DNA of 40,835 nucleotides from positions 1 through 40,835 of the forward strand of contig CAXXSM010000006.1 in assembly GCA_963663405.2 (NCBI GenBank). Reading direction: 5' to 3'. The position numbers were made by a program, and so were the translations under genes. The DNA comes from a bacterium (GTDB lineage Bacteria > Hinthialibacterota > Hinthialibacteria > Hinthialibacterales > Hinthialibacteraceae). Each line of letters begins with the position of its first letter. Position 1 is the stretch's first letter. Positions 16,106-40,617 of this stretch are shown piece by piece. The notes beneath the pieces were generated by a model. The model had not been told where the DNA came from. It ran no database searches and saw nothing but the letters and a program-made list of their open reading frames with translations.

Positions 16106-16440
16106 GATCCCCTCCCAGTTAATTTGGTAACTAGGTAAATCTAGCATATGTCCAAAAAGGATTTCAAGGGATGGCGGGAACAATTTCTATAGATCGATAG
16201 AAAAATCGGTGCGGTTTAAGATCCAACCTATTCGCTCCCGGTGGATGTGGTATGGTATTCACGGAATAAAATATGGTTTTGGTGGCGCGTGAATATTGAG
16301 TCTCAATCTAAAAAAATTTTGAGCTGCGCGCCGCCGTTTTTTATGTCCATCGGCTAAGCCTTGCCACGCCTATGCGGACTTTTTCAATTTTCCAATAGAA
16401 ACAACATTGGGGAGAAAATGGCCATTTTCATAAGTAAAAA
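16060..16440. repeat. Copy A of a diverged inverted repeat (upstream region + signal peptide of the lectin genes)
   Basis: Reverse complement aligns with ~18210-18740, e.g. TTTTTGGACATATGCTAGATT; CCTATGCGGACTTTTT and ATAGAAACAACATTGGGGAGAAAA are also shared. Confidence 0.85.
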
Positions 16441-21700: not shown

Positions 21701-22771
21701 ATTTTAATTTATCCAGCACACACACAAGTTATCACAGAACGGACACCAACCTTTGTTTGGAATATTTTTAATTTTACCTATAATGGAAATCCTGTTGGAG
21801 TTTCAAATTATTGCCTCGATTTAGAGATCCCAAGCGGTGAATTATTTTCATTGTGGGATATTCCTTGCGATTATACGAGCGAACAATACTTTGCACATTT
21901 GTGGTGGAATCATAAGTTTGGATTGTATACATTTTTGCCTCCACTCCCAACGGGAAATCATACATTGAACCTAGGAGCATTCCAAAATATTGGCACCGGA
22001 TTTAATTTTTCTGCAAATCGAACAATTCAATTTACTGCTCCGATTGCTGAGGATATCAATAATGATGGATATGTTAATATACTAGATTTAGTAATGATTA
22101 GCATTCATTTTGGGCGACAAGTAAACGATGGACTCAATCCTATCTGGACATTCATCGGGGATGGCTCTATTCCAGATAGATCAGATGTAAATAGCGATGG
22201 AGTAGTAAATATATTGGATATGGTTCGAGTATCAATTTCTTTTGATAATGACCAGGCATTTGAAATGGACACTTATATCAATGCGAATTCAACGGATACC
22301 ACGAGTGGACAAGACACTGTTTTGGTAGTTCACTCGATAGGTCCATCCGTTAGTGGAAGTCACGTGCGTACTTTGATGCAGTTTAATGTCAATATTCATT
22401 CACCTAATTCTTTAAGTGCGATAATTAAAATCCGACTTGCTCAAGTTGATCATCCCGGTAGTGTTAAGCTGTATGGATTGGAAAAGGAATGGGATGATGA
22501 GTGGGCATCGTGGAACACTCGCATGGAGGGAATTAACTGGGAGATTCCTGGAGGAGTTTTTGATACTGACAACAAAATAACAGAGGTTCATTCGGATACG
22601 GCTAATGAAAATGGTTGGATGTCATTTGACATTACTCCATTATTTAAAAAATGGGTAAATGGGGATTTGACAAACTATGGAGTCATTCTTTATCCTGGCT
22701 CATTAGACGTTAGATTAGAATTTGATTCAATGGAATCTTCTAATCCACCCTATCTTGAAGTTACGTATTAA
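18680..22771 (+). CDS. Secreted multidomain protein: C-type lectin, two LRR blocks, one HxWWNH repeat unit, internal dockerin-like tag, C-terminal DNRLRE-like domain
   Basis: Signal peptide; GGHLVAINDQAENDWI; 21-aa (63-bp) LRRs NQLTSLDVSNNTAL..L.C; duplicated INTPENFPD cap; DTYIN...SFDITPLFKKWV..NYGVIL..PYLEVTY. Confidence 0.9.
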   Translation: MERLRFITGLSLIFCFTLSSLVYSTEWYTNPANGNQYTVHTNSTSWQTAEEWAVSQGGHLVAINDQAENDWIVDTLLPEFSNTQLLWIGLYKDNGVYNWVNGEPVIYTNWHPTQPDSDNLTVLDTDPNRGPGLWWSISTGTRSSIIEIASGGPYETPTPLNTPIPIDTPTPIPEPYINTPENFPDPNFLNRVESFMGGDFTEAQAAVKTGALYCQGYNIRSLIGIEYFTSIHDLYCGDNQLTSLDVSNNTALEKLWCFDNQLTSLDVSNNTALESLYCHENQLTNLDVSNNTALIDLRCHVNQLTSLDISNNTALEYLVCSQNQLTSLDVSNNTALRYFWCEGNQLTEISSLVSNSGIGSGDEVDVSYNNLTCDDWDDILILKNRIGAGFVYSPQNGLYPFDCNNNINTPENFPDANFRSTVENFMGVPPGGDFTAAEAASKTGILDCSNLGIFELDGIEFFTGIQNLWCNHNHLTNLDVSYNIAMTELKCYFNQLTNLDVSHNYSLISLYCDNNQLTGLDVSNNTVLNTLYCGVNQLTSLDLSGADSLKSLWCFNNKLTNLDVSNNPELIDLKCYFNQLTNLYVSHNTALIALYCGDNQLISLDVSKNSNLNELWCVNNQLNSLDVSNNIALKTLRCDWNQLTSLDVSSNIALTELWSFENQLTSLDISNNIDLKYLHCYSNQLSTLDLSNNTDLIELKCYSNPLSSLDISKNTSLVFLHCYDSQLTHLDISNNSDLCLLWCFENQLTSIDVSNNISLKYLRCERNNLTEISSLVSNAGLGSGDEVDVSYNDLTCDDWDDILTLQSRIGSGFVYSPQNGLDPFDCTSVETPTPEPTLIPTPYPTPELFPYIEDANVNVGYNVYHNNGQIDSSYKFGLKIDAFGEFSEMQTSDVTLMANGTSLNLDYIDVSLRDIIEDSASPIAKEVAGNPEDASKNLESVDIPIVLGDQILNTLQVTEPNFYIIKAGGIFENNPILGEYVVDVRDSSDTTASHIIGTLLDYPQDAPILIYPAHTQVITERTPTFVWNIFNFTYNGNPVGVSNYCLDLEIPSGELFSLWDIPCDYTSEQYFAHLWWNHKFGLYTFLPPLPTGNHTLNLGAFQNIGTGFNFSANRTIQFTAPIAEDINNDGYVNILDLVMISIHFGRQVNDGLNPIWTFIGDGSIPDRSDVNSDGVVNILDMVRVSISFDNDQAFEMDTYINANSTDTTSGQDTVLVVHSIGPSVSGSHVRTLMQFNVNIHSPNSLSAIIKIRLAQVDHPGSVKLYGLEKEWDDEWASWNTRMEGINWEIPGGVFDTDNKITEVHSDTANENGWMSFDITPLFKKWVNGDLTNYGVILYPGSLDVRLEFDSMESSNPPYLEVTY
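22049..22246 (+). repeat. Dockerin-like module, copy 1 of 6 (198 bp)
   Basis: EDINNDGYVNILDLV...DVNSDGVVNILDMVRVSISFD. Confidence 0.88.
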
Positions 22772-22841
22772 ATGCACTAATCGAACACACTCGAACAGTA
22801 ACCTAAGGTTTATGGATATCTTATCATGCTATTATATCGGC

Positions 22842-23225
22842 ATGGGAAAATCTAAAGATATCAAACAGAAGATCCTTGTCGGCCAACACCGGCGGACGTG
22901 GGAATGGTTTGGGATCGTGCGGGAGTCGGATGGTAGCCAGTCTAAGAATTACGGACCGTTCAAATCCGCGAAACATGCAGAGGCAGTGATTCGGAAGGTT
23001 TGGGGGATTCCGGGGGAAGTTGAGACTAAAATGAATCCCTGCACCGGAATTACGATATTGTTGAGCATTCCGGTGACTTTAACCGCCTTCGATGGTTGGA
23101 TTCATTGCTTCATAATTGTTATCATTTCCATCATGTCCTGTTCAATCGCGTTTAAGTTTAAGAAAAAACTCGATTTCTATCCCATGAAATCTCAGAAAAA
23201 AGCCATCCCTACCGAGACGTATTAA
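22842..23225 (+). CDS. Hypothetical protein, copy 2; 1-base insertion near 23034 extends its C-terminus
   Basis: Direct DNA repeat of ~16480-16860. Confidence 0.55.
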   Translation: MGKSKDIKQKILVGQHRRTWEWFGIVRESDGSQSKNYGPFKSAKHAEAVIRKVWGIPGEVETKMNPCTGITILLSIPVTLTAFDGWIHCFIIVIISIMSCSIAFKFKKKLDFYPMKSQKKAIPTETY

Positions 23226-23341
23226 TAACAATATTGTCAACTGCTTATCGGTGGACCGATTCTTGGATAATAGCTACATGTGGTCCGATCCAAGCCAAAC
23301 TGGGTCATTCTTTATCCTGAAAACCTCAATGCAATAAATAT

Positions 23342-23782
23342 TCAATCAAATGCGATGGACACGCGGACCATATCCAGAATATTGACTACGCCGTCATTAT
23401 TCACATCCGCTTTGTCGGGGATGGAGCCATCGCCGATGGATGTCCAAAGTGGAATGAGACCATCATTCACTACCCGGCCAAAGTGGATACTAATTAATAC
23501 TAAATCTAAAATATTGACAAAGCCATCGCCGTTGACGTCCTCCTCTTTCACTTCCTCAAAATAGAGTTGTCCGATAAATCCAGTATAAATGACAGTCTGT
23601 CCACTTCCGGAGGATGAGGTTCCCCCGGTCTCCAGCGCGGCGAACATCGACACCGCGCCCCCACTTGAGGCTTGCGCCCCCGATCCGATCCCGCTGGGAA
23701 CAATCTCCGTGTCGGCTTGGGCGCCGAATGGGAAGAGTGAAATACATATTAACAAAGTAAGAAGCATTCTTTTTGTGTACAC
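23342..23782 (-). CDS. Small secreted Gly/Ser-rich protein with C-terminal dockerin-like tag (copy 2, 23345-23542)
   Basis: AGGAG RBS before GTG 23782; signal peptide ending AQA; tag EDVNGDGFVNILD... Confidence 0.82.
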   Translation of the reverse strand: MYTKRMLLTLLICISLFPFGAQADTEIVPSGIGSGAQASSGGAVSMFAALETGGTSSSGSGQTVIYTGFIGQLYFEEVKEEDVNGDGFVNILDLVLISIHFGRVVNDGLIPLWTSIGDGSIPDKADVNNDGVVNILDMVRVSIAFD

Positions 23783-24094
23783 TTTTTTTCTCCTATAATC
23801 TTTTATGAAAGCCAGGACTCTCATCCGCGCCATCAAAAGTAATCCTCGCGGTTGCTCGATCTTTATGTGATTCAAACCATCAAAATCCCGCGCGAGCTGG
23901 GGAGATATATCTCCCCAGCGCCCCTCTCCGGTTTCTGAACTCCAAATCTTTCCCTCTACCACCGTTCATTCCATCTTCCATGAACGGGCGGACGCCGGCT
24001 GCCGCTTCGCCGCCGCCCGTCCATTCCAGATTCCATTCTCTACCTATTCCGTTCTCCGAGTTTTCTCCCTCCAAGCCCTATAGGGTAAAAGCAC

Positions 24095-26356
24095 TCAAGG
24101 GTAAGACCTCAGGAGCCGGAAGCCAATGTAGTTGTAGCGGTAGCCGGGCGAGTCGTGGCTGCGATCCGCTGACCGGCAGTTCCTGGCGAAGTTAATCCAA
24201 CTGCCACCGCGAAGCACACAGTTCGAGCCGGTAGTAGGACCGGTTGGATCGATTTTATTTTCAATGGTATAATACGTGCTACTATACCAATCATTACACC
24301 ATTCCCAGACATTTCCACTCATATCATATAGGCCCCAGGCATTTGGTAGTTTTAAACCGGCTTCCTGTGTTTGTGACGATGAATTACTATTATACCAAGC
24401 GTAATCCCCAATCTCCGTATAACTCGGATCATCCCCCCAATAATACCGCGTCGTAGTTCCCGCCCGGCACGCGTTCTCCCATTCCGCCTCCGTCGGCATT
24501 CGATAGCCATCCGCTTCGTAATCTATCGCCCACGTTGATAGATCATACACAGGCGTCCTTCCCTCCATCTCACTTAAGCGATTGCAAAATCGCGCGCAAT
24601 CATACCAATTCACCTGCTCCACCGGATGATTGTTTCCACTAAAACCCGAAGGAGTAGTACTGATTCCCCATGGATTCCCAGCCATCACCGCCACCCATTG
24701 CGCCTGCGTCACCTCATACTTCCCCATGTAATAATCTTTCGTAATCATTACACCATGCTGGGGTTTTTCCCAATCAAACGCATCCGGATCGCTATCCGGG
24801 CTTCCCATTTTGAATACACCCGCATTTATATTAACCATCTCAAGTGGTTTGGCGCCCGCTGCCAGATTGGGTAGATTTACCGTAATCACATCCCATCCAG
24901 ATGGCCATTTCCCTTTCACCGAATCGGCCACTTTCGCATGGTCTGCATCTGTAGCCTGATCCGCGCTTGCCGCATGACCTGCGCTTGCCGCATGACCTGC
25001 GTTCGCCGCTTGATCGGCATTCGTCGCTTGATCGGCAAGATCGGCATGATCGGCATCTTTCGCTTTGAATGTATCGGCGGTTAATGTCCCCGTGACCGTA
25101 AGATTCCCAACATCAGCCGTCCCCGATACATCCATATCTCCGTGAATAAACGTCCCACCATTGGCGCGAACCACGAACTGGTTTTCGCCTGTGGATTCAA
25201 TATCCGCGTTCGTGCTGTCACCCCAGACAAAACTGCCATCGTGCAACGCTTTCGCCCTTCGGCCAGCCGCGAAACTTAAGCCTCCTTCAGCAGTGTTGCT
25301 TAATCCTCCAGGGACGGTTCCATAATTCCCACTTGCGGTGTTGCCCTGTCCTCCACCGACGGTGGCTCTCGAACCTGAGGATGTATTCCAGCCTCCACCC
25401 GCGACGTTTCCATACTCACCTTCAACCGTGTTATCAATTCCACCCGCGACGGTTCCATAATTCCCACTGGCTGTATTGCTTTGTCCTCCACTGACTGTGG
25501 CTCTATCACCGGATGCGGTATTGGTAAATCCCCCTCCTACGGTGGAATCAACTGCCCCTGCAGTATTCTGCCGGCCACCACCGATGGTTCCATAATGGGC
25601 GGTCACTTGGTTGAGTTGTCCTCCCTGTCCGCCCCCACTAATAGTCGCGCCCCACATACCATCTGTGACACTGTTTCCAGAATTCCCAGCAATAACATTA
25701 GGTGAAATAGATTTCGGTTCCAGCCGCATCACGCGTTGACTGTTCACGTGTAGTTCCAGCGCCTGGTTATCTGTCGTCCCCAGAAAATCAGTTCCGGGCG
25801 TGGTCCCCGCGTTGCCTGTCAGCCCCCAGAGCGTTGTGATATCGAAACCGGTTAGCGCGTCCGCCACATCGGCGTGATTTGATGTGGCTGCTTGATCCGC
25901 TTCCCCCGCATGCGCCGCTTCCATCGCATAGCCGACAACCAGAATCCGCTGATCGGTCGAGAGTTGCTCAAACGTCTCAGCAGGTGGAGGAGTAGAACTG
26001 AACCAGACCCGCAGATAGACTTCCGGATAACTAAACACATCCGGCGTAATCTCATCATCCATGTTGGTCAGACTGGTGTCTCCCAATCCGAGCGAGAACA
26101 ATCCCTCATTCACAGAAAGCGAGACCGCGTTCCCAGGCTCTACATTCGTCCCGGACGTCCCATCGTTGCTCCACAAAATCAATCCTGTTGAATCCACCAA
26201 AGCGAATTTGAAATGCCCTGTTCCATCATAGGGCGATCCATTCACCATCACTCGTCCCTGGTACCCCATAATCCCCGGTACCGCCGCGCCTGCTAAAGAA
26301 ACCAAAAACATGGAAACAAAAAAACCTGTGATGATACGAATCGTTCTCTTAAACAT
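24095..26356 (-). CDS. Secreted fibre/adhesin-like protein with C-terminal FGE-sulfatase (CLec-fold) domain; probable DGR target
   Basis: Signal peptide, YQGR N-terminal domain, 14-aa GGG..NTA.G repeats, Ala/Asp/His stalk, FKMGS, KYEVTQAQW, RMPTEAEWE, GLYDMSGNVWEWC, RGGSW...GFRL. Confidence 0.9.
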   Translation of the reverse strand: MFKRTIRIITGFFVSMFLVSLAGAAVPGIMGYQGRVMVNGSPYDGTGHFKFALVDSTGLILWSNDGTSGTNVEPGNAVSLSVNEGLFSLGLGDTSLTNMDDEITPDVFSYPEVYLRVWFSSTPPPAETFEQLSTDQRILVVGYAMEAAHAGEADQAATSNHADVADALTGFDITTLWGLTGNAGTTPGTDFLGTTDNQALELHVNSQRVMRLEPKSISPNVIAGNSGNSVTDGMWGATISGGGQGGQLNQVTAHYGTIGGGRQNTAGAVDSTVGGGFTNTASGDRATVSGGQSNTASGNYGTVAGGIDNTVEGEYGNVAGGGWNTSSGSRATVGGGQGNTASGNYGTVPGGLSNTAEGGLSFAAGRRAKALHDGSFVWGDSTNADIESTGENQFVVRANGGTFIHGDMDVSGTADVGNLTVTGTLTADTFKAKDADHADLADQATNADQAANAGHAASAGHAASADQATDADHAKVADSVKGKWPSGWDVITVNLPNLAAGAKPLEMVNINAGVFKMGSPDSDPDAFDWEKPQHGVMITKDYYMGKYEVTQAQWVAVMAGNPWGISTTPSGFSGNNHPVEQVNWYDCARFCNRLSEMEGRTPVYDLSTWAIDYEADGYRMPTEAEWENACRAGTTTRYYWGDDPSYTEIGDYAWYNSNSSSQTQEAGLKLPNAWGLYDMSGNVWEWCNDWYSSTYYTIENKIDPTGPTTGSNCVLRGGSWINFARNCRSADRSHDSPGYRYNYIGFRLLRSYP
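24098..24232 (-). other. DGR variable-region-like segment
   Basis: NNC/NNT codons at canonical AAY positions in a GC-rich frame; no matching template repeat in the window. Confidence 0.6.
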
Positions 26357-26396
26357 TCCGTGCTCTCCTTAAAATTAAGATGTTCTTATCAATACA

Positions 26397-26441
26397 CAAA
26401 AAGCCGGACCACTTCAAAATCATTTGAAGGCGGCCCGGCTA
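26397..26441 (-). terminator. Intrinsic terminator (riboswitch expression platform)
   Basis: AGCCGGGCCGCCTTCAAA-TGAT-TTTGAAGTGGTCCGGCT-TTTT on the minus strand. Confidence 0.8.
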
Positions 26442-26506
26442 TCTTTTCTATACCAAGATCCGTGGCTTTCCGTCCCTATCTCTCGATAGGTTTGGCTTTA
26501 TCTAAA
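26427..26506 (-). ncRNA. Cyclic di-GMP-I (GEMM-I) riboswitch
   Basis: Minus strand AAAGCCAAACCTATC-GAGA-GATAGGGACGGAAAGCCACGGATCT...AGATAGCCGGGCCGCC: P2 with GNRA loop, GGGACGGAAAGCC core, P3. Confidence 0.88.
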
Positions 26507-27036
26507 TTACCGAAACAATAAAATTATAATACTATATATATAGATTTACGTATATATAATAATATGAGAAAGAAAAGAGATTAATTTTACCACTTAAAAT
26601 CAACATTTGTCAATACAAAATCAGAAAAATCATAAATAAATAAATATTTTTGCAATATATCGTTACACAGTTTTTTTGATCAATTGAAACAAAAAAATAA
26701 GATATTTCTCTTTCAAAAAAATCCAGCCTTTAATCCGCTGTTAACATTCCTTATATTTATCCAGATATACCTGTAAGAAATAAAACTATAAATTCAATTA
26801 TTTATATTAAAAGACTCTCCAATTCTACAAAGTTTTATGAGTATGTCTATCGTGAATAGTCATGATTTTGAATGGCAAAAATCGCTAGTTACACTAGCTG
26901 TAACTGCTAGTAATGAATGTTAAAATTTGGGAGGGATTGATAGATTTAAAGGATGCAAATGAGAATCATAAATATTTATAAAGGTTTGAAATGGTGTAGG
27001 TTACGTCTTAGTAGTTCATGTAAAACTTAACCGAAT

Positions 27037-29958
27037 TCAATCAAATTTGATCGCTACCCGGACCATATCCAGTATATTAACCACCCCATCATCATTCACA
27101 TCTGCGCGATCCGGGATTGATCCATCCCCAATGGACGTCCAAGAAGGATCGAGTCCATCATTTACTTGGCGTCCAAAGTGAATACTGATCAGAACCAAAT
27201 CCAGGATATTGACGTAACAATCATTATTTACATCTTCAACAATAGGCGATCTACAAAGCCTGAAATAATCGTCACTGACATCCCATATCTTTTGATTCCA
27301 ATCGAATCCAAACGGATTGAATATGTATACCGCGCCTGAATTCGCTGCATTGTTGTCATGTCCACTTGCCCCTACAATGACACTGCTCTCGTACGTAGAA
27401 ATCGATATCCCGAGATGATCACCTGCGCCAATATCAGATGACATAATTTTCGTTTTATAATTCCAACTATTTCCCTCTCTCATAAAAATGTATATCGAAC
27501 CCGCATCGATTCCCAAAGCGTCAGTCTCAGGCGCGCCAATCGCCGCGATCTCTCCATACAACGCCACAGAATGACCAAAACGATCTCCTCCCGACGCATC
27601 GATAGCCAGTAATTTATCTTGCTGAGTCCATGATACGCCGATGCGAGTAAACACATAGGCGGAGCCTGAATCATCACTTACATCATCATTGTTACTCGCT
27701 CCAATTATTACGGTGTCATCGTATATCGATACGGATTCCCCGAAATTATCACCTTCAGAAGCGTCATCAGCCGTTAATTTCGCTTGTTGAGACCACGTCG
27801 TTCCATTACGAGTGAATACATAGGCTGAGCCTGACATGGGGCCTGCGTCATCATCATATGGAGATGTAGCGACAATGGTGTCTCCTGAAATGGAAACGGA
27901 GTAACCAAAGCCGTCTTCCGAAACTGCGTCGATAGGGATTAATTCCGCTTCTTCGATCCATTCAAGTCCATTCCAGATGAATACATAAACCGAACCAGCA
28001 TCCATTCCAGCGTTATCATTCGTAAAGGCGCCTACAACGATCGTATTTCCCGATATTGCGACGGAACTACCAAATCCGTCTCCCGCCGTTGCATCGCTGG
28101 CCACAAGTTTTGCTTGCTGAGTCCAGGCAGCGCCGTTCCAGGCAAAAACATAGGCCGATCCAGATTCTGAACTCATGTCCACTGTGGGGGCTCCAGCGAC
28201 AATCAAATCATCGTCTAGCGCCACGGCGGCTCCAAAGAAATCATCCTCCGCTGCGTCATCAGCCAATAACTTCGCTTGGATTTCCCATTCACTATTTTGT
28301 TTAGAAAATACATATACCGAACCGGCGTCCGGACCCGCGTCATTGTCATACTTCATCCCTGCTACAGCGATGTCTTCCTCAATTGTTACTGATCCACCAA
28401 ACTGATGATCGCGCGCCGCGTCCCCCGCTGTCAATTTTGCTCGCTGGTTCCAAACATCAATTTTTCTCTCGAATATGTAGGCAGTTCCCGCATAAATACC
28501 CCCATCGTCATCCGAATGTGCTCCTGCAACTATCGTATCTCCATAAATAACATGTCCACCAAATTGGTCTCCGGCTTCAATGTCGCTTGATAACAGTTTT
28601 GCTTGTTGAGTCCATGTACTACTATTTTTCACAAATACATACGACGCTCCTGAGTTTTCACCGATCCCATCCTGGCCATTAGCAGCAACTACTACAGTGT
28701 TTCCGGAAATGGATATACGACCTCCAAATTCATCCGCTTCATTGAGATCATCTGGAGATAATTTCGCTTCCTATACCCAGGAATTGCCGTTATTTGCAAA
28801 AATGTAGGCCGATCCAGAATTCTCACAACTGCCATCATTATGAGGAGAGCCAACCGCTATGAGATCGTCATAAATTGATACTCGCGCTCCAAAAAAATCC
28901 ATCGTAACACCGTCAGATGCCTTCAGTTTTGCTTGTTGATTCCAACTCTCACCATTTCTCTCAAACACATAGGCCGCTCCGACCCAAGCATTATCTCGGC
29001 TTCCAATAACCGCTATGTTATTCCAAATCGAAACATCCTGCCCAAAAAAATCTAATGTATGAGGATCACTCGCTGTTAGTTTTGCTTGTTGACTCCAAGT
29101 ATCTACATTTCTTACAAACACATAGGCCGATCCGGAATCTTCAAATACGTCATCATCAAAAGAGGATCCTACAATAATAGTATCTTCATAGATTGATACA
29201 GATTCTCCAAAATGGTCAAATTCAGCAGGATCACTGGCAATGAGTTTCGCTTGTTCCGTCCAAATACCACTATCTTTCACAAACACATAGGCCGATCCAG
29301 AATACGTTCCTCCATCATCATCTTCTTCAGCCCCTATGACAATGGTATCTCCATAAATCGCTACAGAACTTCCAAATTGGTCGCTTATAGCAGCGTCACT
29401 TGCAGTTAATTTTTGATATTGAATCCACCCCATCCCTTTTTTTATAAATACATAAACTGCGCCAACATCATTATCACGATGTGCGGCTATCACAACAGTA
29501 TCTCCATAAATTGCTGTATGCCTTCCAAACATATCATAATGATACGAATCGCAATTGCCATGAACGAGTTTTGTCTCTTCATGAGCAATAGCAGAAATTT
29601 CAATGGCGCATAGTGTGGAGGATATATCGGGTGTCAACCATGGATAACTGTTCAATCCAGGGATAGTTGTCACTGCGCGCTCTATCGTCTCCCAGGACAC
29701 CATTCCATCCGCGCTAAACATGAGATCAACTGAGCTTATTCCGCCTGTACATAGATATTCAATATCATTTACTGTATTCCCATCCCAAAATTCTCCTCCA
29801 TCAGGCGCGATGATTTGAATCTCCGGTAATATCTCCATAGAAGCTGTGTCAGTATCCGATAATCCCACATTAATGAAAGTATTCATAAATACAAATGTTA
29901 AACCAATTATAGCAATTCGGATATTTGCTTGTTTAAACATGATCGTTCTCCTTTCCAT
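27037..29958 (-). CDS. Secreted FG-GAP beta-propeller protein with C-terminal dockerin-like tag (copy 3, 27040-27237); interrupted by an in-frame TAG at 28771-28773
   Basis: Repeats of W.QQAKL.ASD....D.FG.SV.I....IVVGA..DD....GSAYVF; the two track ORFs share a frame and the sequence between them encodes an intact repeat. Confidence 0.85.
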
Positions 29959-29986
29959 AATTCAGGCAGAATTTGTAAAACGAGAT

Positions 29987-31594
29987 TCAATCAAACGCAA
30001 TAGACACACGAACCATATCCAAGATATTGACCACTCCATCATCATTCACATCCGCTTGATCCGGTATTGAGCCATCCCCTATGGACGTCCAGGCAGGTTC
30101 GAGTCCATCGTTCACTTGACGGCCGAAATGGATGCTGATGACGACTAAATCTAAGATATTAACAACTCCATCATTATTGATATCTTCTGGAATAGGGAAT
30201 TCGTACTGTAAGGCATTGTATGCGTTGACAAGCCCGCCAGTTACTGTTTTTCCATCCAGCGATGGAATTGGGCGAACTGTGTTTAAAATCACATCTTTTA
30301 TCTCTTGGTATGACCGATCTGGATGCTGGGCATACACCAAAGCGGCGACACCGGCCACGTGGGGTGTCGCCATCGATGTGCCACTTAGATAAATATAAGG
30401 GGGGAATCCCTTATTCAAATAAGTGGGACATGTACTTCCGACATATACTCCTGGAGCGCCAATATCTACACTGGTTTCGCCATAACAGGAAAACGAGGCC
30501 ATGTTGTCTTTATTGTCCGTAGCAGCCACAGATATGATATTGTCCAGGTCGTATGAGGATGGATAGACCGGTTGGAGATCGTTGTCACCATTGCTGTTTC
30601 CAGCGGCGGCGATGAAAAGATGCCCGATAGATTGAGACGCTTCTATCGCGTCGTAGAGCGCTTGGGTATGTCCACCAGACCAACTGTTATTTGAAACTTT
30701 CACCCCCATCATTACCGCATAATCGATCGCTTTAACCGCATAACTGGTATATCCACCATTAGGTCCCATCATCCGGAGAGGCATAAGTTTACAATTCCAC
30801 AAGACTCCCGTTACGCCTTCTTCATTATCTCCTACAGCGCCTATTATGCCAGCGACATGTGTGCCGTGATATTCGTCTGGAAGCCACGGTCGATTCCAAG
30901 GAGATGGATCGTTATCCCCTTCAAAAAAATCCCATCCATTTACATCGTCCACATATCCGTTATCATCATCGTCAATTCCGTTATCCGGGATCTCATTCGG
31001 ATTAACCCAAATGTTCGCTGCCAGGTCAGGATGTTCCATCTGGATTCCCGTATCGAGAATCGCAATCACAGTATTTGGATCTCCAGTGGAGATTGTCCAC
31101 GCTTCCGGAGCGTCGATATCCGCATCGGGTACACCCTCGTTGGCTGGTTGATCGGGGGGAATTGTCTGCCCCGTGTTATGTAATCCCCATTGCAGATCAA
31201 AATAGGTGTCATTGGGAATCAATGGAGTCGGCTCACCAGGATCTGATTGGATGAAATAATCGGGTTCTGCGTATTCAATAAATGGAAGATTACTTAACTT
31301 CTCTATCGCCTTCTCTACATCAATTCCGGTTATCTTGATATGTTCCAGTCCAGGAACAATCTTATATCCCTTAAGTTTTTTACCACCAACCAATGTTCTT
31401 GCAAGCGTCATATTCTTTGTTAAAATGTTCGTCTTGAATCGGACGAGAATGGAATCGGAAGCGAATTTAATACGAGTATTCTTATTAGATTTCTGCAACA
31501 TCTGGGATTGCGCCTTCAGCGCACATGTACATACGAATGCTATTATCGATAGTATTAGGATATGAGGATAATAACGCTGAAGACAGTATCTCAT
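29987..31594 (-). CDS. Secreted S8 subtilisin-like protease with dockerin-like tag (copy 4, 29990-30187)
   Basis: Triad ILDTGI / YHGTHVAG / GTSMATPHVAG, AAAGN oxyanion motif, propeptide YAEPDY. Confidence 0.94.
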   Translation of the reverse strand: MRYCLQRYYPHILILSIIAFVCTCALKAQSQMLQKSNKNTRIKFASDSILVRFKTNILTKNMTLARTLVGGKKLKGYKIVPGLEHIKITGIDVEKAIEKLSNLPFIEYAEPDYFIQSDPGEPTPLIPNDTYFDLQWGLHNTGQTIPPDQPANEGVPDADIDAPEAWTISTGDPNTVIAILDTGIQMEHPDLAANIWVNPNEIPDNGIDDDDNGYVDDVNGWDFFEGDNDPSPWNRPWLPDEYHGTHVAGIIGAVGDNEEGVTGVLWNCKLMPLRMMGPNGGYTSYAVKAIDYAVMMGVKVSNNSWSGGHTQALYDAIEASQSIGHLFIAAAGNSNGDNDLQPVYPSSYDLDNIISVAATDNKDNMASFSCYGETSVDIGAPGVYVGSTCPTYLNKGFPPYIYLSGTSMATPHVAGVAALVYAQHPDRSYQEIKDVILNTVRPIPSLDGKTVTGGLVNAYNALQYEFPIPEDINNDGVVNILDLVVISIHFGRQVNDGLEPAWTSIGDGSIPDQADVNDDGVVNILDMVRVSIAFD

Positions 31595-31649: not shown

Positions 31650-33590
31650 TCAATCAAACGCGATTGACACACGAACCATATCCAGTACATTGACAACTCC
31701 ATCATCATTCACATCCGCTCGATCCGGGATGGAATCATCCCCTATTGACGTCCAGGAAGGATCGAGTCCATCGCTTACTTGGCGGCCAAAATGAATGCTG
31801 ATTACCACTAAATCCAAGATATTGACAACGCCATCATTGTTAACGTCTTCCGCATATTGTTTTAGTGTCAGACGGCCGGATCCAAAAAGGTTGTCTTTCC
31901 CTGGATCCCCTAAATCAACCGCCCATTGCTCGAGGAGATTTTGATAATCGGTTAATGAAAGATGTGGATATCGAGACATCAATAACGCCGCCGCACCCGC
32001 CACGTGAGGTGTCGCCGCTGAAGTGCCGCCTAGAACTGTTAAGATTTCTACAGAGACATCCGTCGGCCCACAAAGATCTGGTTTGATCCTTCCACCTAGC
32101 GACGGGGGATCGCCTCCTGGGCCATTGGTAGGTCCTTGCGAACTATACGATTTTAAAATCCCATTTTCCCATTTATCTTTTCCAATGGCTCCAACAGAGA
32201 TTGCTGTAGGTGAATTCGCGGGATTGATCAAACTCCCCGGTTTGATGTAGTAATTCATGTTTTGTGGAAAACTGAATAGTTCGAGATAACATTCGGGAGG
32301 AACGGGATCGTTGGATTCAATCCGTATCACATACCAACTATCGGATGGAGCGATCAAAGAAATCTTTTCTGTTGGTTGCTGACCGGAATAACCGTTTTGA
32401 GGATTATTCGAGACAGCCACTTCATGATAACTTTTATTGATCGAATCCCATTCCAATAATCGAAGTTCCAAATTAATCGTACAATTCGTCCAATCATTCC
32501 AACTGAGATATACGTCGATTCGATCGTCGGCTTTTGCCTGGATAAAGTTATCGGCGGAATTTCCATCCCCAGCCGGATTGGGATTTTGAAAGTCATGCAT
32601 ATAATTTGAATTCATTGCATACGGATTTGACTCCGAAATTTCAGTAGGGAAAAAAAATCCTTCATAATGTCTTTTAGCCATATTCCCCGCAGCGGTTACC
32701 CATAAGATTCCATTTTGCCGGGCATGATCAATGATATCACAAATCGGTCCAGTCCCATCATAAGGCCCTTCATTCGCCCATCCAACTGAATACGAGATGA
32801 TATCCACTTCTTGATCAATGAGCCAATTTACGGCGGCTCCCAGTTCAACAATCGTTTCGCTGTTCACTAAATATAATGTCGAATCCGGCGCCATATCATA
32901 GACAATTTCCGCGCATGCGGTACCATGATATGTACTTCCTGGAAAGACACCATTTTCCCCAGATGGATCACCATAAAAAGATTTGGTGATAAGACCGTTG
33001 GGTAAATCCGTTCCCAATAAATTTTCATAGCCGTGAAAGCCTTCATCAAGAACAGCGATTTTTACACCTTGCCCGTTATATCCAGCAATATGATATTCAT
33101 TGGCTTTGGTCAGATCGACTCCTTCGCTGATTGCGAAAGAGATCGGAGTGTTTGGAGTTTTTATATAAACGCCGGGTAGATTCGTGATACGATCGAGATG
33201 GATTAGCGGAATTTTAACTTGCAGAAAATGATTGTACGATCCTTCTACTTTTACACCAAGAGATTGGAGTGATATTTCTAGTTCTTTTGTATTACTCTCT
33301 GTGTCCACAACGATAATGATAGCAATCATCTCTCCCGGAAGGATGTTCCAATCCATTTTTCGCGGCTGTGTTTTTGAATAGGAATTCTGTTTGTGGAATT
33401 GCTCCAGATTCCACAAATTCCAATCTAATTTTAAATTGATTTCTGTTTCGTATTGATTATTATCGCCTTCTAATAATTTTTTAATGGTGGCCCCAGAATC
33501 ATTCACTCCATTAATTCGGGAAAATGAGATATCATCGATTAATAAAAGAAGAAAAAATAGAACTAAAATTTTTTTTATAGTGTTATTCAT
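31650..33590 (-). CDS. Secreted S8 protease with inserted domain and dockerin-like tag (copy 5, 31653-31850)
   Basis: AVLDEGF / YHGTACAE / GTSAATPHVAG, KPDLCGP; start moved to ATG 33590 (signal-like MNNTIKKILVLFFLLLL). Confidence 0.9.
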   Translation of the reverse strand: MNNTIKKILVLFFLLLLIDDISFSRINGVNDSGATIKKLLEGDNNQYETEINLKLDWNLWNLEQFHKQNSYSKTQPRKMDWNILPGEMIAIIIVVDTESNTKELEISLQSLGVKVEGSYNHFLQVKIPLIHLDRITNLPGVYIKTPNTPISFAISEGVDLTKANEYHIAGYNGQGVKIAVLDEGFHGYENLLGTDLPNGLITKSFYGDPSGENGVFPGSTYHGTACAEIVYDMAPDSTLYLVNSETIVELGAAVNWLIDQEVDIISYSVGWANEGPYDGTGPICDIIDHARQNGILWVTAAGNMAKRHYEGFFFPTEISESNPYAMNSNYMHDFQNPNPAGDGNSADNFIQAKADDRIDVYLSWNDWTNCTINLELRLLEWDSINKSYHEVAVSNNPQNGYSGQQPTEKISLIAPSDSWYVIRIESNDPVPPECYLELFSFPQNMNYYIKPGSLINPANSPTAISVGAIGKDKWENGILKSYSSQGPTNGPGGDPPSLGGRIKPDLCGPTDVSVEILTVLGGTSAATPHVAGAAALLMSRYPHLSLTDYQNLLEQWAVDLGDPGKDNLFGSGRLTLKQYAEDVNNDGVVNILDLVVISIHFGRQVSDGLDPSWTSIGDDSIPDRADVNDDGVVNVLDMVRVSIAFD

Positions 33591-33624
33591 AATTTTGTAA
33601 ATTAAATGAATGACTTTTTTTAAA

Positions 33625-33664
33625 TAAAAAATCAAGGGGAGAGATAATAGACCTCCCCCCTTGA
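33625..33664 (-). terminator. Intrinsic terminator after the cohesin gene
   Basis: CAAGGGG...CCCCTTG stem followed by a T-rich tract on the minus strand. Confidence 0.7.
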
Positions 33665-33713
33665 TAGTGAGTACTATTCAATTCGAACAAGATTTAGATT
33701 TTATGGATTGAAT

Positions 33714-34881
33714 TTAAGGCACGGCCACACAATCCTCAACAATTCCCATATCAACGAGAATTAAATACAGCCAATATGGAATTTCCACCAAATTCACCTG
33801 ATCGCCGCAGTCAATGATAATTACGATAGGAAGAGTCGGATCCGATTCATATGGAAGTAAGAACCAATTCATCGTCACGTATTCATAAATCTCTATAACA
33901 ATAGCAGGATCCCATGTGATTCCTCCGCCTTGGTAAAAACCAGCGTCCCAGGGGAATCCGTTGAAGAGCAACATCCAAATCACCGCTTGGATTTCATTGT
34001 TTGTTGCGCTTAACATAAATGGCAATTGTGGTAATTGAGAATTGTATCTATTGCGATATAACCACAAAAGATAATTAACAAGCGGGAGGTTTTGTGGATT
34101 CCCGATTAAGGGGCAATCTTGTACGGTGAGAGAGGAATAGCATCCGACATTTTGATACCACCAACCCAGTTTGATATTTGTATCGATATCCGCGCACCAA
34201 CCAGGATATATTGTGTCTCCACCCGCGGCCAACGTGGGAGTAAACCAAGCGTCAAAATAACCTAGAACACCCGGCCAATATTTACCGCTGCCATTCCCCT
34301 GCCCATCACCATTCACTAGGTAATCACGGTTGACGTCATTGCCAGTAGAGACATTGATGGTCGTATTTTCAAGCGAAACACCTGGTATCGCATTACCGGA
34401 CGAATCGGATATCAGGCAACCTGTTGGGCCGTAGGGGGCCAAAAGAGATTTCAGAAGAGTAATTTGTCGAACTTCCAGATATTTCCCGAAAACGAATGGA
34501 TACTAAATCTCCAGAAGCAGTAACAGGCACAATACCAACTTCACCTAAAGGATAGATTTTGTTGCCATTCACGAGGGTTGCAGGAGGAATTATAAATATT
34601 GGAAAAGATAAACCCGAAGGAAAAATTCCTGAATTCGTATGACTTACATATTCGAATTTGGAAGAATCGAAAAATATCTCTAATTGATATCCTCTCATCA
34701 ATTCTTGACTTTCCAAATGCACTACGACATCGAATTCATCACCCAGTCCTATGTTTTGACTTGGAGGCTGAAGTGAAAGGGTTGCCGTAGTCTGCGCGGA
34801 AACATCGTTAACGCCCCATCCGCAGATGAAAAGCAAAAGACTGCTCACAAGTACTACTTTCACACGGTTGTGTCTTTTCAT
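33714..34881 (-). CDS. Secreted cohesin-like domain + putative thioester-domain protein; one extra base at 34434-34438 splits it into two ORFs
   Basis: AAGGAG RBS, signal peptide; LSLQPPSQNIGLGDEFDVVV...GYQLEIFFDSSKFEYVS...SGDLVSIRFRE...ISF(GPY)...ISDSSGNAIP cohesin pattern; GWCAD...IQAVIW...DQVNLV. Confidence 0.7.
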
Positions 34882-34930
34882 TGCCCTATCTCCTTTTCTG
34901 TAAAAAAAAAAAGAATTTATTAAACGAGAA

Positions 34931-37900
34931 TCAATCGAACGCGATCGATACTCGCACCATATCCAAAATATTGACGACTCCATCATCATTCACATCCGCT
35001 TGATCTGGAATGGATCCATCGCCGATGGAAGTCCATAGAGGAACGAGTCCATCATTGACTTGACGGCCGAAATGGATACTGATCAAGACCAAGTCTAAAA
35101 TATTGACCACTCCATCGCCGTTGACATCCTCCGCTCTTGCCAGAGCGCACTCAAATTGAATGTTACGATTCGCCGAGAAACTAAATCCTGCATCCACATT
35201 TTGATACGCGCCCAAATTCAACGCATGGTTCCCCGAAGGCAATGGCTGCAATAGTTCTTCCTGTTGATTGTTGTGATTCCACCACAGATGCGCGTCATAC
35301 ACCTCACTCGTCTGTCCAGCGGGGATATTCCACAAGGAATAGAATTGCCCATCAGACATGGCAAGATCCAAACAATAATCCGAAACACCAATAGAATTCC
35401 CATTATAGGTGAAGTCGAATGAATTCCAAGTGAACGTTGGCTCCTGCTCAGAAATAATTTGAGTGTGAACCGGGTACGTTAAACTAGGCGCGTCTTGAGG
35501 ATAATCTAGCAACGTCCCAATCGAGTGAGCCGTAGTCTGACTACTGTTATCACGAACTTCTACAATGTATTCACTTAAGATTGGAGTTCCAATAAATTCG
35601 CCTCCAACATCGATGTGGTAACGATTACAGCCATTTGAATAAATATTGAAATTGTCAAGATTCAAATCATTGTCACCCACGACCATGACTCGAATATCAC
35701 TTATTTGCATACTACTGAAATCACCGATGACGTCGACTGATACTCCAAAATTGTACCAAGAATCGACTTGACCATTGTGATGGTTTACATTGTAGCTAAT
35801 GTTCATGTGCGCATTCGAGATATCCGGATTCGTCTCCGCAGACTGGAATTGAATATACCTAGTCGTTGAGAGACTGAAATTAGTATCAACATCGCTATGC
35901 GCACCAAGGCTCAAGCCGTGGCTGCCCACTGGCAGTGGTGGAAGAAATTCATCCTGTTGCGTATTGTGATTCCACCACTCATGATCACTATATCCCTCAA
36001 TCATTTGCTCATTGGGAATCCACAGCCCATATCCATCCCCATTATATATGTTCAGATTGAGAGAGTAATTCTGTGCGCTTAGCGAATTCCCACCGTAAGT
36101 GAAACTATACATATCCCACATGAATCTTGGCGTCTGGTTAGTGATCAACTCACAATGTGTTGGATGAATCAAGTTCGGGGCAGTTTGTGGATAGTCTATC
36201 AGGGTTCCAATGATGTATGAAGTAGTTTGATCACTACTGTCACGCACTTCTACTACATACTCGCCGAGAACCGGGATACCTGAATACGATCCCCAGACAT
36301 TGATATGATAATTGTCGCATCCTTGTAAATCGACGTTGAGACTCCCGCTTTCTAGGTTCAATACGGTTCCGTCTGCCAGTATTGTGATATCACTAATATC
36401 CATCCCGCTAAAATCACCGAGTGCGTTCACCCATAAACTAAATTCATACATTTCATCAACTTGGCTGTTATAATGGTTGACGTAGTAATTAAGATTAACT
36501 TCTGCGCTCACGATATCCGGATTGGTCTCCGCATATTGGAATTGGATGTGCTGGTTCGTCCAGAAACTGAAGGGCGTTCCTGTGTCCAAATGGACGCCGA
36601 TATTCATGCTGTGGCTGCCCACCGGCAACCGCGGCAGGTATTCGTTCTGTTGCGTGTTATGGTTCCACCACTCGTGATCCCCATATCCTTCACTCGTCTG
36701 CCCGCTGGATACCGATAGACCGTACCCATCCCCATTTTGAATCCACAGATCGAGATTGTAGTTCTGAAAACTGGCTGGAGTTCCGTTGTAACTGAAACTG
36801 TATGCGTCCCAGGTGAACGTCGGAGTCTGGTTCGTGATCAACTCGCAGGGCCCTGGATAGGTCAAGTTCGGCGCGTCCTGCGGATAATCCACCAGCGTTC
36901 CGATCATGTATGATGTGGTTTGATCCGCGTTATCCCGCACCTCCACCACATACTCCCCGAGAATCGGATCGCCCGCGTACGGCCCCCAAATATTGATATG
37001 GTAATGGTTGCACCCCTTGCTGATCAGCGCTGAAACTATTGCCGTCCAGGCTCAACGGCGTTCCATTCGCTGTCACGGTGATGTCACTTGAGTTCATCCC
37101 GCTGAAATCCCCTATCGCATCCACCCAAACATTCAATCCGTATGATGTGTTCAGCTGGCTGTTCCCGTCGTAATTGACGTCACAGTTGATATGAATGTTC
37201 GAACTTGCGATGTCCGGATTCGTCTCTCCGTACTGGAATTGTATGTACCGGTTTACCCAGAAATTGAAGGCTCCACCAGTATTCAAATAAGCGGCCAAGT
37301 TTAAGTTGTGTCCCCCTACCGGCAACGGTGGCAGATATTCATTTTGCTGCGTATTGTGATTCCACCACTCATGATCTCCATATCCTTCGCTCGTCTGCCC
37401 GGCGGATACCCAAAGGTTGTACACGTCCCCATTATAAATACTCAGATCGAGTGAGTAATCTTGTACAATCAGCGGAGTTCCATCGTAAGTAAAACTGTAC
37501 GCATCCCATGTGAACGTGGGTGTCTGATTCGTAATCAATTCGCAGTGCGTGGGATACGTCAGATCCGGCGCCTTCTGTGGGTAATCCACCAGCGTTCCAA
37601 TCGTATACGATGTGATCTGATCCACACTATCCCGGATCTCTACGATATACTCTCCTAATATCGGATCCCCCGTGTATGGAGCCCAGACATTGATGTGGTA
37701 ACTGTTGCATCCATTGGAATCGATGTTGAAACTATCGCCGTCCAGGCTCAGTGGCGTTCCATCCGCTGTCACGGTGATATCACTCACATCCATCCCACTG
37801 AAATCACCGATCGCGTCCATCCATACATAAAACCCGTATGATGTGTCTACTTGACCTTCATGATGGTTCACATAGTAATCAATATTAACATTCGCGCTGA

Positions 37901-40617
37901 CAATATCCGGATTCGTCTCCGCATACTGGAATTGGATGTAGCGAGTCGCCGAGATAGTAAAACCATTGTCAACATTTGTATGCGCACTCAGTTCCAAACC
38001 ATGATTTCCTACAGGCAGCGGGGGTAGTAACTCATCTTGCTGAGCATCATAATGCCACCACTCATGATCTCCATATCCTTCGCTCGTTTGCCACCAGGAA
38101 GATTCAGGCCGTACCAGTCTCCACTGTTTATTTCCAGACCGAGCGAGTAGTCCTGAACGCTCAATGGAGTGCCATCATAAGTGAATCCATACGCGTCCCA
38201 CGTAAACGTTGGCGTCTGATTCGTAAGCAAGTCACAATGCGTGGGATGTGTCAAATTCGGCGCGGATCGAGGATAATCCTCCAACGTTCCAACCGTGTAT
38301 GAAGTTGTCTGATCACTGCTATCCCGTATTTCCACCACATACTCTCCAAGAATCGGCTCACCCGTATATGACCCCCAGGCATGGATGTGGTAACTGTTGC
38401 ACCCATTGGAATTGACTTCGATACTGTCGAAACTCAAATCCGTATCGCCAACTACACTCACTCTTATATCACTGATATCCATCCACTGAAATCACCGATC
38501 GCATCCACCCATGCATAAAATACATATGACGTGTCTATCTGGCCATTATAGTGATGAACGTGGTAATCAATAATCATATTCGAATCCACAATATCCGGAT
38601 TCGTCTCTGCAGACTGGAATTGAATATGTCGCGTCGCCCAGAAACTGAAAGCGCCGCCCGTTTCCATGAAAGCGCCCAGGCTCAAGCCGTGATTACCCAT
38701 TGGCAACGGTGGCAGGTATTCATCTTGTTGGGTGTTGTGATTCCACCATTCGTGATCCCCGTATACTTCGCTCGTTTGTCCGCCGGGAATCCATAGGTTG
38801 TATCCATCCCCGTTATAGATACCCAGGTCGAGTGAGTAGTTCTGCACGCTCAACGGATTCCCATCGTAACTGAATCCATATGCGTCCCAGGTAAAGGTTG
38901 GCGTCTGGGTCGCGATCAATTCGCAATGCGTAGGATACGTCAAATTCGGGGCGGTTTGCGGATATCCTAATAACGTTCCTAAAGAGTGTGAATCCGTCTC
39001 GAAATCATCATCTATGATAGAAACAATATATTCACCTAAGTTTGGATTGCCTGTATAAGATCCCCATACATGGATACCAGCATCTCCACCATTGATTTCG
39101 GTTTCGACTCCATCAATGTTTAAAACATCAACACCAACAGTGAGGGTAATATCACTTGGTTCAACATCACTAAAATTACCGGACGCCTCAATGTAGAGAT
39201 CAAAATTATATATATTATCAACGGAACCATTATAATAATTTTCATTGTAGGAAATAACAAAATGCGCATCGTTTATTGCGGCTTCCACATTTTCGCGGAC
39301 AAAAATATCTGAATGGTTATTGGTATCATTAGGAACTAGGTTAAAAGATCCTGATTCAAAAGCGATGTAACGCCCATCCGTTGAGATGGATGGTTCATAA
39401 CTCGAACCATCTCCTTGGTTGCTTAAAGAATCGACGCTGGCTAAGGTAGTGATCCCTGTTTGGCAATCATGAACAAAAATATCCCTATAATTTGTATCAT
39501 TAGAAATTAGATTATTAGCCTCTGATTCAAATGCAGCATAACGTCCATCCGGTGAGATGGATGGATCAGTACTATTTCCATTTCCTTGATTTCCCGATGA
39601 ATCGACACTAACACGAGTTGTGGTTCCAGCTTGGCAATCGCGTATAAAAATATCATTTTGACCGTTCGTATCTCCGGTGACTAAATTGTCTGCAATGGAA
39701 TTAAAGGCAATGAAACGCCCATCCGCTGAAATGGATGGATAATCACTTCCTCCGTTCCCCTGATTTCCAGAAGAATCGACACTCACTAGAGTTGTAGTCC
39801 CAGCCTGGCGATCGCGAACAAAGATATCACATTGACCATTCGTGTCATTCGAAACAAGGTTAGAAGCACGTGATGCAAAGGCGACATAACGCCCATCCGC
39901 TGAAATAGATGGATGATAACTGGCTCCATTACCCTCAATTCCTGATGAAGAAATACTCACTCTTATTGTGTTTCCCGTCTGACAATCGTGGACAAACACA
40001 TCATATGCATTATTCGTGTCGTCGACAACGAGATTATTAGATAGAGAATAAAAGGCGGCATAGCGCCCATGCTCTGAGATGGAGATCAAACCTCCTCCAT
40101 CGCCCCCTCCACGATCTCCTTCGGTTCCAGAAGAATCAACACTGACTCGAGTTGTGGATCCTGTCTGACAATCGTGAACGAAAACATCTGGCCAATTATT
40201 TGTATCTCCGGATACTAGATTATCAGCAAGTGATGAAAAAATAACAAAACGCCCATCCGCCGAGATGGATAGAGATGAACAGTCCCCATTCCCCTGATTT
40301 CCAGAAGAATCGACACTGACTCGGCTTGTAACTCCTGTCTGGCGATCGTGCACAAAAATATCAACATGACCGTTCGTATCATTTGGAACAAGATTATCTG
40401 CAAAAGAAGCAAAGGCGACATAACGTCCATCCGCTGAGATGGATGCGTACATGCTTCTAGAATCCCCTTCACTCCCCGAAGAATCGACGCTGACTCTAGT
40501 AGTCGTTTCCGCTTGAATATCCCCAGGCATAATGAATGCCCATATACATGCGATGATAAGAATAATCCGTGAACGAGACGCTTGAATTCGAGACAATCCC
40601 ATTTTGATGGAAGGCAT
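34931..40617 (-). CDS. Giant secreted protein (~1900 aa once repaired): TolB/PD40-like propeller, six tandem ~230-aa repeats, dockerin-like tag (copy 6, 34934-35131); three 1-base frameshifts
   Basis: PSISADGRYVAF.S.A.NLV..DTN...DIFV.D repeats; the four track ORFs join when indels at 38483, 38091 and 37013 are corrected against sister repeats. Confidence 0.85.
35140..39280 (-). repeat. Six tandem ~690-bp repeats
   Basis: Anchor TCCGGATT(C/G)GTCTC recurs near 35823, 36516, 37213, 37906 and 38594. Confidence 0.88.

Follow-up and report, generated by a model that had tools for sequence, protein, structure and literature searches.

Can a domain that couples itself covalently to its target serve as the C-terminal anchor of secreted proteins, and at the same time as the foot of a cohesin-bearing adaptor, in a diderm bacterium? 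The question is raised by a gene on the minus strand of contig CAXXSM010000006.1 (NCBI GenBank assembly GCA_963663405.2; family Hinthialibacteraceae, phylum Hinthialibacterota), positions 1 to 40,835 of which constitute the window analysed here. An initial annotation, made from the sequence alone, had read this gene as a cohesin fused to a putative thioester domain (TED), which could attach the product covalently to a target or to the cell's own envelope while the cohesin recruits tagged proteases and adhesins. We find that the C-terminal domain is almost certainly a TED homologue and that it recurs as the tail of diverse other proteins encoded in the same genome, where it may act as a covalent anchor.

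The locus is one gene. It is distributed over two overlapping open reading frames (ORFs), 34393-34989 (with the true start at ATG 34881) and 33714-34442, on either side of the frameshift which the initial annotation had recommended to repair and which is indeed present as a +1 shift in a run of five C; when CCCC is read as a single Pro, one product results that is open over 388 residues. The coordinates proposed for the Cys of GWCAD and for the Gln of DQVNLV proved exact to the base, and the helical VNYLL...EIQAVIW segment is present as described, as is everything else given there (Table 1).

The C-terminal domain's predicted fold is that of a TED, i.e., a six-stranded β-barrel combined with a three-helix bundle. 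The AF2 model (pLDDT 88.4, pTM 0.88) was obtained with alignment A2, which comprises 32 rows of the domain at 22–65% identity: 16 taken from the present genome (the copy in the window, 14 further members of its 'tail clade' and one divergent paralogue) and 16 from distant metagenome homologues. In the structure searches that had been suggested as a check, TEDs alone stand at the top with both Foldseek and VIA-align. Among 48,161 PDB representatives, VIA-align places TEDs at ranks 1–8 (2xi9_A, Z-score 9.8; 5a0g_A, 9.6; 5dcq_D, 8.6; 5a0l_B, 8.5; 6fwv_B, 8.3; 5a0n_A, 8.1; 6fwy_A, 7.8; 6fx6_A, 7.2), with root-mean-square deviations of 3.5–4.2 Å over 136–169 residues, and the next chain has a Z-score of 4.1; the first 13 entries listed by Foldseek (ranks 1–21) are without exception adhesin structures of the TED fold (Cpa, CpTIE, SfbI, FNE, EfmTIE86 and BaTIE), with probabilities of up to 0.99. 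According to the model, the fold is thus shared with the Gram-positive class I TEDs of family PF08341 (CpTIE, 5a0g; SfbI, 5a0l; PnTIE, 5a0n; Cpa, 2xi9/4c0z) at Z-scores of 8.1–9.8, and the β-sandwich insert of class II is absent, with 12 residues between helix 3 and strand P. In contrast to the solved Gram-positive TEDs, with which it shares just 7–13% identity, the window domain has no direct match in Pfam, carries a Trp before the Cys, is devoid of helix α-0, and adds a C-terminal helix as well as a clade-specific pair of cysteines.

Sequence comparison leads to the same superfamily by way of intermediates. An exhaustive phmmer search of 1.84 billion representatives with the window ORF yielded 33 matches at E≤0.001, including P0019 (E 1.2e-10) and P0022 (E 6.7e-10), which themselves score above the Pfam gathering cut-off of 22 bits for PF08341 (22.5 and 24.3 bits, respectively), and Pfam TED is matched by 7 of the 26 phmmer-match proteins that were scanned. 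Nine of the 32 members of A2 match TED at E≤1, the window copy not being among them, and TED is the only Pfam family matched by more than one member. When the 15-row alignment of the window's tail clade (A3) is compared by hhalign with that of an intermediate group which includes Pfam-TED-positive members (A4), the two are joined at 99.8% (E 5e-28, 158 columns), and in the pairing Cys stands opposite Cys, IQAVIW opposite IQAAIW, and Gln opposite Gln. Among 5.8 billion clusters, a word-indexed search retrieved five proteins matching the C-terminal half. Searches with A3 gave 13 pattern matches elsewhere (one genome per species), none of which was confirmed, and the best sequence-profile matches in the PDB (E 0.05–1) were dismissed as chance. 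We hence place the domain outside the present Pfam PF08341 model and inside the TED superfamily.

The three motifs of a TED are found in the correct order and, in the model, in the correct secondary-structure context, as in the Gram-positive class I domains, and on the evidence of the alignments they lie far beyond chance expectation. The motif scheme used in the initial annotation agrees with that of Walden 2015, and the Cys and the distal Gln which it had picked by eye turn out to be the conserved pair of A2 (Cys in 31/32 rows, Gln in 32/32). Of the outcomes named there as refuting it, both a different fold and an unconserved Cys or Gln were looked for, and both checks went in its favour. 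In known TEDs, the Cys is described as part of a [YFL]C-φ-ζ motif on a strand and the helper motif TQxx-φ-W, located on the central helix, as not universal, while Cys and Gln are given as the sole universally conserved residues (Walden 2015, Miller 2018). The residue directly before the Cys48 column is aromatic in all 32 rows of A2. Cys48 and Gln180 are separated by 132 residues, compared with reported spacings of 129 in CpTIE, 152 in SfbI and 153 in PnTIE (Walden 2015), and Gln267 of 5a0g, Gln261 of 5a0l and Gln247 of 5a0n coincide with residue 180 of the model, provided that the last strand, where the VIA alignment ends, is ungapped. The two cysteines specific to the tail clade, Cys75 and Cys203, co-occur in 16 rows of A2 and may, from this pattern, form a disulfide. 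Row 17 of A2 is P0012, a metagenome relative in which the thioester Cys is naturally replaced by Arg (YPAWRAN); this tail-clade member keeps the Gln and both clade-specific cysteines and is possibly a ready-made negative control.

Conservation of this kind makes a live thioester between Cys48 and Gln180 probable. It is alternatively conceivable, albeit improbable in our view, that the TED fold is chemically inert and constitutes a non-covalent binding, sorting or secretion domain like the C-terminal domain of the type IX secretion system, in which Cys and Gln are structural. Such a domain would well accommodate (i) the invariable location at the extreme C-terminus of diverse cargo, (ii) the conserved end motif LGIVxDC along with the clade-specific cysteine pair, (iii) the existence of the Cys-to-Arg variant P0012, and (iv) the absence of a direct Pfam match. 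However, the Gln and the helper Trp (each 32/32) and the Cys (31/32) are among the most conserved columns over the full range of 22–65% identity, Cys and Gln are precisely the residues that are reported to be universally conserved in TEDs, and every Gram-positive TED assayed, 12 domains in all, is reported to have formed the bond (Walden 2015).

The domain is by no means confined to the window. Within its own genome (8.44 Mb), 20 places match it when a single protein is used as the query and 23 when a profile is used. Sixteen genes constitute the tail clade, with 50–65% identity, of which by our own count 13 are intact and three are split by frameshifts, and six further TED genes are more divergent. 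In 21 of the 23 ORF matches the TED is followed by only 0–4 residues. The passengers that precede it comprise an S8 protease, a protein of 2904 residues with FGE-sulfatase (formylglycine-generating enzyme-like), fn3, caspase and PKD domains (P0006), and proteins with GEVED, PD40 propeller, PKD or LRR domains; of the 15 tail-clade members that were scanned, 7 contain LRR, and Pfam found a dockerin on none. When we surveyed the phylum, only 5 of 35 species genomes had any TED-domain match, and since the four others contain one copy each, with at least 500 residues after the domain, the terminal TED tail represents a lineage-specific expansion. The four single-copy relatives (L026-L029, from genomes G004, G011, G017 and G007) belong to the same family and carry a single TED-like domain inside proteins of 1500–1950 residues; their form, which resembles the divergent C22 paralogues of the present genome, may be the ancestral one. 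A dedicated partner gene beside the TED genes was sought and rejected, as the recurring neighbours are LRR proteins with a dockerin tail or no recognised tail.

Two Omp85 proteins and LpxC are encoded in the genome, which is therefore diderm, and no match to a sortase was found in it (82% complete). The occurrence of the TED as a multi-copy C-terminal tail likely moves its role from that of an adhesin head to that of a general anchor. In addition, the A-B region, described as the variable specificity loop of known TEDs, is here better conserved among paralogues than the domain overall (mean pairwise identity 0.67 vs 0.57).

Indications that are weak but concordant point to a divergent cohesin in the N-terminal half of the product. 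A profile of the ten above-cut-off cohesins of the genome assigns 24.9 bits to the window domain (E 2.5e-5 against 28,595 ORFs), aligning the G-D-E...V-V and L-E-I-x-F-D blocks, and 20 of the 30 nearest clusters in the ESM Atlas belong to cohesin-bearing sets, at 0.92. The potential partners are close by: of the 18 dockerins of the genome (PF00404), six are encoded inside the window. These six, and a seventh on contig C55 (L046:1-210), are 79–84% identical to the first over about 70 residues and have a mean column identity of 87% (alignment A6), and the proteins which carry them are otherwise unrelated. Such near-identity suggests, as far as sequences can tell, concerted evolution with one private cohesin. 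The 61-residue dockerins are themselves of an unusual form, in that their two calcium-binding repeats are set apart by a lengthy conserved insertion, GRQVNDGLxPxWTSIGDGSIPD.

Dockerin and TED tails are, by sequence comparison, interchangeable on paralogous passengers. The dockerin-tailed S8 protease encoded at 31650-33635 shares 52% identity over 565 residues with P0007, an S8 protein with a TED tail, and the two part exactly where the tails begin; likewise, some LRR proteins end in a TED, some in a dockerin, and others lack any recognised tail domain. This exchange, together with the accumulation of dockerins in the window, provides contextual support for the recruiting scaffold which the initial annotation had envisaged.

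The reading we favour, with a probability of about 0.4 for the entire chain, is that the TED is a covalent anchoring tail, that the cohesin-TED protein is the corresponding adaptor, and that the target belongs to the producer's own surface. The product, whose signal peptide is followed by a single divergent cohesin and, as its tail, by a compact class-I-like TED, would be exported via Sec; after folding, an internal thioester would form autocatalytically between Cys48 and Gln180, and an amine of one common target would attack it, yielding an isopeptide bond to Gln180. The tail would then be a sortase-independent covalent anchor. Meanwhile, the cohesin would bind the uniform 61-residue dockerins of six neighbours, among them two S8 proteases, an FG-GAP protein and a lectin/LRR protein, such that the protein would act as a one-cohesin anchoring adaptor that delivers dockerin-tagged proteins to the same site that TED-tailed proteins reach on their own. 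Considered on its own, and on the sequence evidence given above, the adaptor role of cohesin-TED has odds in our estimate slightly short of even. One may speculate, more tentatively, that covalent display proceeds without sortase along two routes, either directly, with the TED tail linking its Gln180 to an amine of the cell's own surface or matrix, or through a private, nearly invariant dockerin that plugs into the cohesin-TED adaptor, itself anchored in like manner. If true, proteases and LRR proteins would be assembled covalently at the surface in the manner of a cellulosome, and a thioester domain would for the first time be seen to serve as an anchor instead of an adhesin head.

A single common target is assumed because the paralogues agree well in the A-B region. 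That this target is part of the surface or matrix of the producer itself appears most likely, and a host or substrate surface less likely, because the C-terminal position, the diversity of the cargo and the lack of any other anchor typify anchoring modules. Nonetheless, a live thioester aimed at a foreign surface, such as the extracellular matrix of a host, prey or some particulate substrate, is nearly as likely, even if by itself rather doubtful. Enzymes, LRR proteins and, via the cohesin, dockerin-bearing proteins would in that case be fixed covalently to the foreign surface and not to the producing cell. Every TED target reported so far is a protein of the host (fibrinogen, in the case of SfbI and FbaB), passengers of the kinds observed here (LRR, C-type lectin, proteases, PKD) typically belong to proteins directed at a host or matrix, and the outer surface of diderms is without an established amine acceptor. 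On the other hand, the known adhesin TEDs are distal N-terminal heads located opposite a separate cell anchor, TED-tailed proteins devoid of any other anchor would be lost by the producing cell, and both the tail position and the diversity of the cargo resemble those of anchoring or sorting modules. The conserved A-B region fits one common target in either case and cannot tell self from foreign.

Several results weigh against anchoring at the producer's own surface, or against steps on which it depends. As regards the domain assignment, the window TED yields no match in Pfam (including TED and TED_2) or NCBIfam at E≤1 or 10 and thus remains below the gathering cut-off of PF08341; profile searches of PDB sequences with alignments A1, A2 and A4 returned no TED; no Foldseek match reaches E≤0.001 (best 2.6e-3), with TM-scores of just 0.4–0.5; and Z-scores of 8–10 are, by VIA's own description, only moderately above those of a typical best match. 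As regards the chemistry, the motifs deviate from the published ones by a Trp before the Cys (not Tyr, Phe or Leu), by Ile for Thr, and by an Asp, not a hydrophobic residue, before the Gln, while P0012 shows at the level of sequence that the fold can outlast the loss of the bond. The cohesin-like call of the initial annotation, upheld by the own-genome profile and the Atlas neighbours, is not upheld by Pfam: PF00963, with a cut-off of 24.1 bits, scores 21.2 bits on the N-terminal ORF (E 3.6e-4), 19.2 bits on the read-through product and 20.7 bits in the genome search (34465-34743). A jackhmmer search of the genome's ORFs with the cohesin half retrieves only itself and no paralogue, a search for homologous proteins only itself and one 107-residue fragment, and the AF2 model of the N-terminal ORF, all-β after the signal helix, has a pLDDT of 48 (two-row alignment) and is unusable for a fold search for the nine-stranded jelly roll of cohesins. 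Finally, known TEDs are described as N-terminal heads directed at foreign targets, and TED-tailed proteins would need a route across the outer membrane and an amine to attack.

The frameshift bears on the same question, since, if real, it would mean a dead gene. We consider the break in the C5 run very probably a technical or assembly indel, because the adjoining gene (34931-40617) contains three further frame breaks of similar kind at or near G/C runs, two of them next to a G5 and a C5 run, respectively, and the third within a short stretch of G. A programmed frameshift was rejected, no slippery-site context being evident and three similar breaks being present in the adjoining gene. For verification we relied on contigs of two public runs, X1 and X2, and in neither does any contig bridge the C5 run, which adds to the points against; X1 contributes only pieces that are 90–95% alike and come from a relative's TED, whereas in X2 one contig ends at 34437 and another begins at 34435, at a depth of 2–2.7. 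That the gene is a pseudogene, from which only a truncated cohesin fragment without TED would be made and in which the fusion would be a relic, is quite improbable in our view. It is true that the frameshift is present in the assembled sequence, that 3 of the 16 tail-clade genes, including that of the window, are split, and that the site remains unbridged in both runs. Yet both halves are otherwise open, the TED half retains every residue that is invariant in the family, the ribosome-binding site and the terminator are intact, the adjoining gene has two of its three breaks beside five-base G/C runs, as expected for technical indels, and the contigs of X2 stop and start, at their low depth, exactly at the C run.

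How do these proteins compare with known systems? In TIE adhesins, the TED is N-terminal, whereas here it is located at the extreme C-terminus; Pfam detects no isopeptide or ester stalk domains and there is no LPXTG motif here; the host is diderm, with no sortase found in the 82% complete genome; and 16 genes, their passenger domains unrelated, end in the TED. A functional analogy may be offered by the anchoring scaffoldins of cellulosomes (cohesin combined with SLH, or with LPXTG, LysM or a transmembrane segment), which likewise join a cohesin to a C-terminal attachment module among dockerin-bearing enzymes, and whose sortase-linked type, in Ruminococcus, sets a precedent for attachment by a covalent bond (PMC11557425). 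A self-reactive TED anchor is, however, absent from the categories listed in the text of that review, where the word 'thioester' occurs 0 times. Furthermore, in contrast to cellulosome scaffoldins, the present protein has a single divergent cohesin, its presumed cargo consists of proteases, LRR and FG-GAP proteins and not of glycoside hydrolases, and the organism is diderm.

Closer in sequence are the unannotated TED-like domains of other diderms, which occur in proteins with SdrD-B or CnaB stalks, in lipoproteins and in PEP-CTERM proteins, and which hhalign, at 99.8% to the intermediate group, assigns to this superfamily as well. A profile search yielded 26 longer proteins with a TED-like domain, often accompanied by SdrD-B or CnaB stalks, and named members come from Methylomirabilota, Planctomycetales, the cyanobacterium Leptothoe, the alphaproteobacterium Poseidonocella, and Chromatium. 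Most of these domains form heads, at the N-terminus or internally, of proteins that are anchored by other means (stalk repeats, lipobox or PEP-CTERM); only in the present genome is the domain a terminal tail, one that has spread to 16 genes and trades places with dockerin. TEDs have been described as occurring 'exclusively in Gram-positive' bacteria, as the tips of adhesins (Walden 2015), and a paper of October 2026 places them in Firmicutes and Actinobacteria. Our literature search did not find the present arrangement described, 'thioester domain' and 'dockerin' appearing together only in a general review. A TED in a diderm is thus undescribed in print, yet recurrent in sequence data, and the elements which are new here are the terminal-tail format, its expansion, the exchange with dockerin and the fusion to a cohesin. 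What sets the locus apart is that a C-terminal TED, shared by 16 proteins of a diderm host, is interchangeable with dockerin and at the same time fused to the matching type of receptor, a cohesin. If the bond forms, it would constitute a new mode of fixing proteins covalently to the surface of Gram-negative-type cells, and provide a natural pair of self-ligating C-terminal tag and adaptor of interest for protein immobilisation.

Table 1. Positions in the window of the cohesin-TED gene, its parts and signals, and the dockerins encoded nearby.
Feature	Position	Strand	Basis or remark
Cohesin-TED gene (signal peptide, cohesin-like domain, C-terminal TED)	33714..34881	minus	ORF list, sequence; start ATG 34881-34879, stop codon 33716-33714 read from sequence
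Shine-Dalgarno-like AGGAG	34890..34894	minus	8 nt ahead of ATG 34881-34879, read from sequence
Predicted Sec signal peptide MKRHNRVKVVLVSSLLLFICGWGVNDVSA	34795..34881	minus	judged by eye; AF2 helix 4-23
Cohesin-like β domain, limits approximate	34345..34790	minus	Pfam-matched core 34465-34746; PF00963, own-genome profile, Atlas
C5 homopolymer CCCCC carrying the +1 frameshift (one extra C)	34434..34438	minus	ORFs, sequence, read-through
TED, 207 residues, class-I-like, extreme C-terminus	33717..34337	minus	AF2, Foldseek, VIA, hhalign
Cys48 of WCAD, predicted thioester Cys	34194..34196	minus	codon TGC 34196-34194; 31/32 A2 rows; end of strand E43-48
Cys75, tail-clade-specific	34113..34115	minus	invariant in 15/15 A3 rows
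QAVIW of TQxx-φ-W helix motif, Gln117-Trp121	33975..33989	minus	codons Gln 33989-33987, Trp 33977-33975; Gln 31/32, Trp 32/32; helix H113-124
Gln180 of DQVNL, predicted thioester Gln	33798..33800	minus	codon CAG 33800-33798; 32/32 A2 rows; start of strand E181-187
Cys203 in conserved tail motif LGIVxDC	33729..33731	minus	invariant in A3
Terminator-like hairpin, 15 pairs, then T run	33631..33665	minus	directly 3' of stop codon
Dockerin of upstream neighbour	34934..35143	minus	PF00404; one of 7 near-identical 61-residue dockerins
Dockerin of downstream S8 protease (gene 31650-33635)	31653..31862	minus	PF00404
Dockerin of second S8 protease (gene 29987-31594)	29990..30199	minus	PF00404
Dockerin of FG-GAP repeat protein (gene 27037-28632)	27040..27249	minus	PF00404
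Dockerin of small protein (gene 23342-23962)	23345..23554	minus	PF00404
Internal dockerin of lectin/LRR/CBM96 protein (gene 18680-22771)	22037..22249	plus	PF00404

The adjoining gene at 34931-40617 (minus strand) is very long and ends in a dockerin; it encodes a PD40 propeller at the N-terminus and, after it, some five copies of a unit of about 200 residues that has no Pfam family, and it is split into four ORFs by the frame breaks mentioned above, which are probably assembly indels. Two large proteins (14153-16183 and 18680-22771) contain C-type lectin domains typical of eukaryotes, the latter combining its lectin domain with LRR, dockerin and CBM96, and a protein of 753 residues (24095-26356, minus strand) has a C-terminal FGE-sulfatase domain, as is also found in the TED-tailed P0006. 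The cluster of surface proteins is adjoined by a mobile-element block (727-13813, plus strand), which encodes a D5-type primase-helicase, a single-stranded DNA-binding protein (SSB), an AAA ATPase, an ArdC-like anti-restriction protein with a zincin domain, two tyrosine integrases, an IS91-family transposase, ParA and an rve integrase.

A second cohesin/TED neighbourhood is located on contig C85 of G000 (20507-28879 and 29398-30375, L048 and L039). There, a protein of 2791 residues with dockerin, TIG, β-helix and PD40 domains ends in an above-cut-off cohesin, and about 0.5 kb downstream a separate small secreted protein is encoded, which carries a TED-like domain of the general diderm type.

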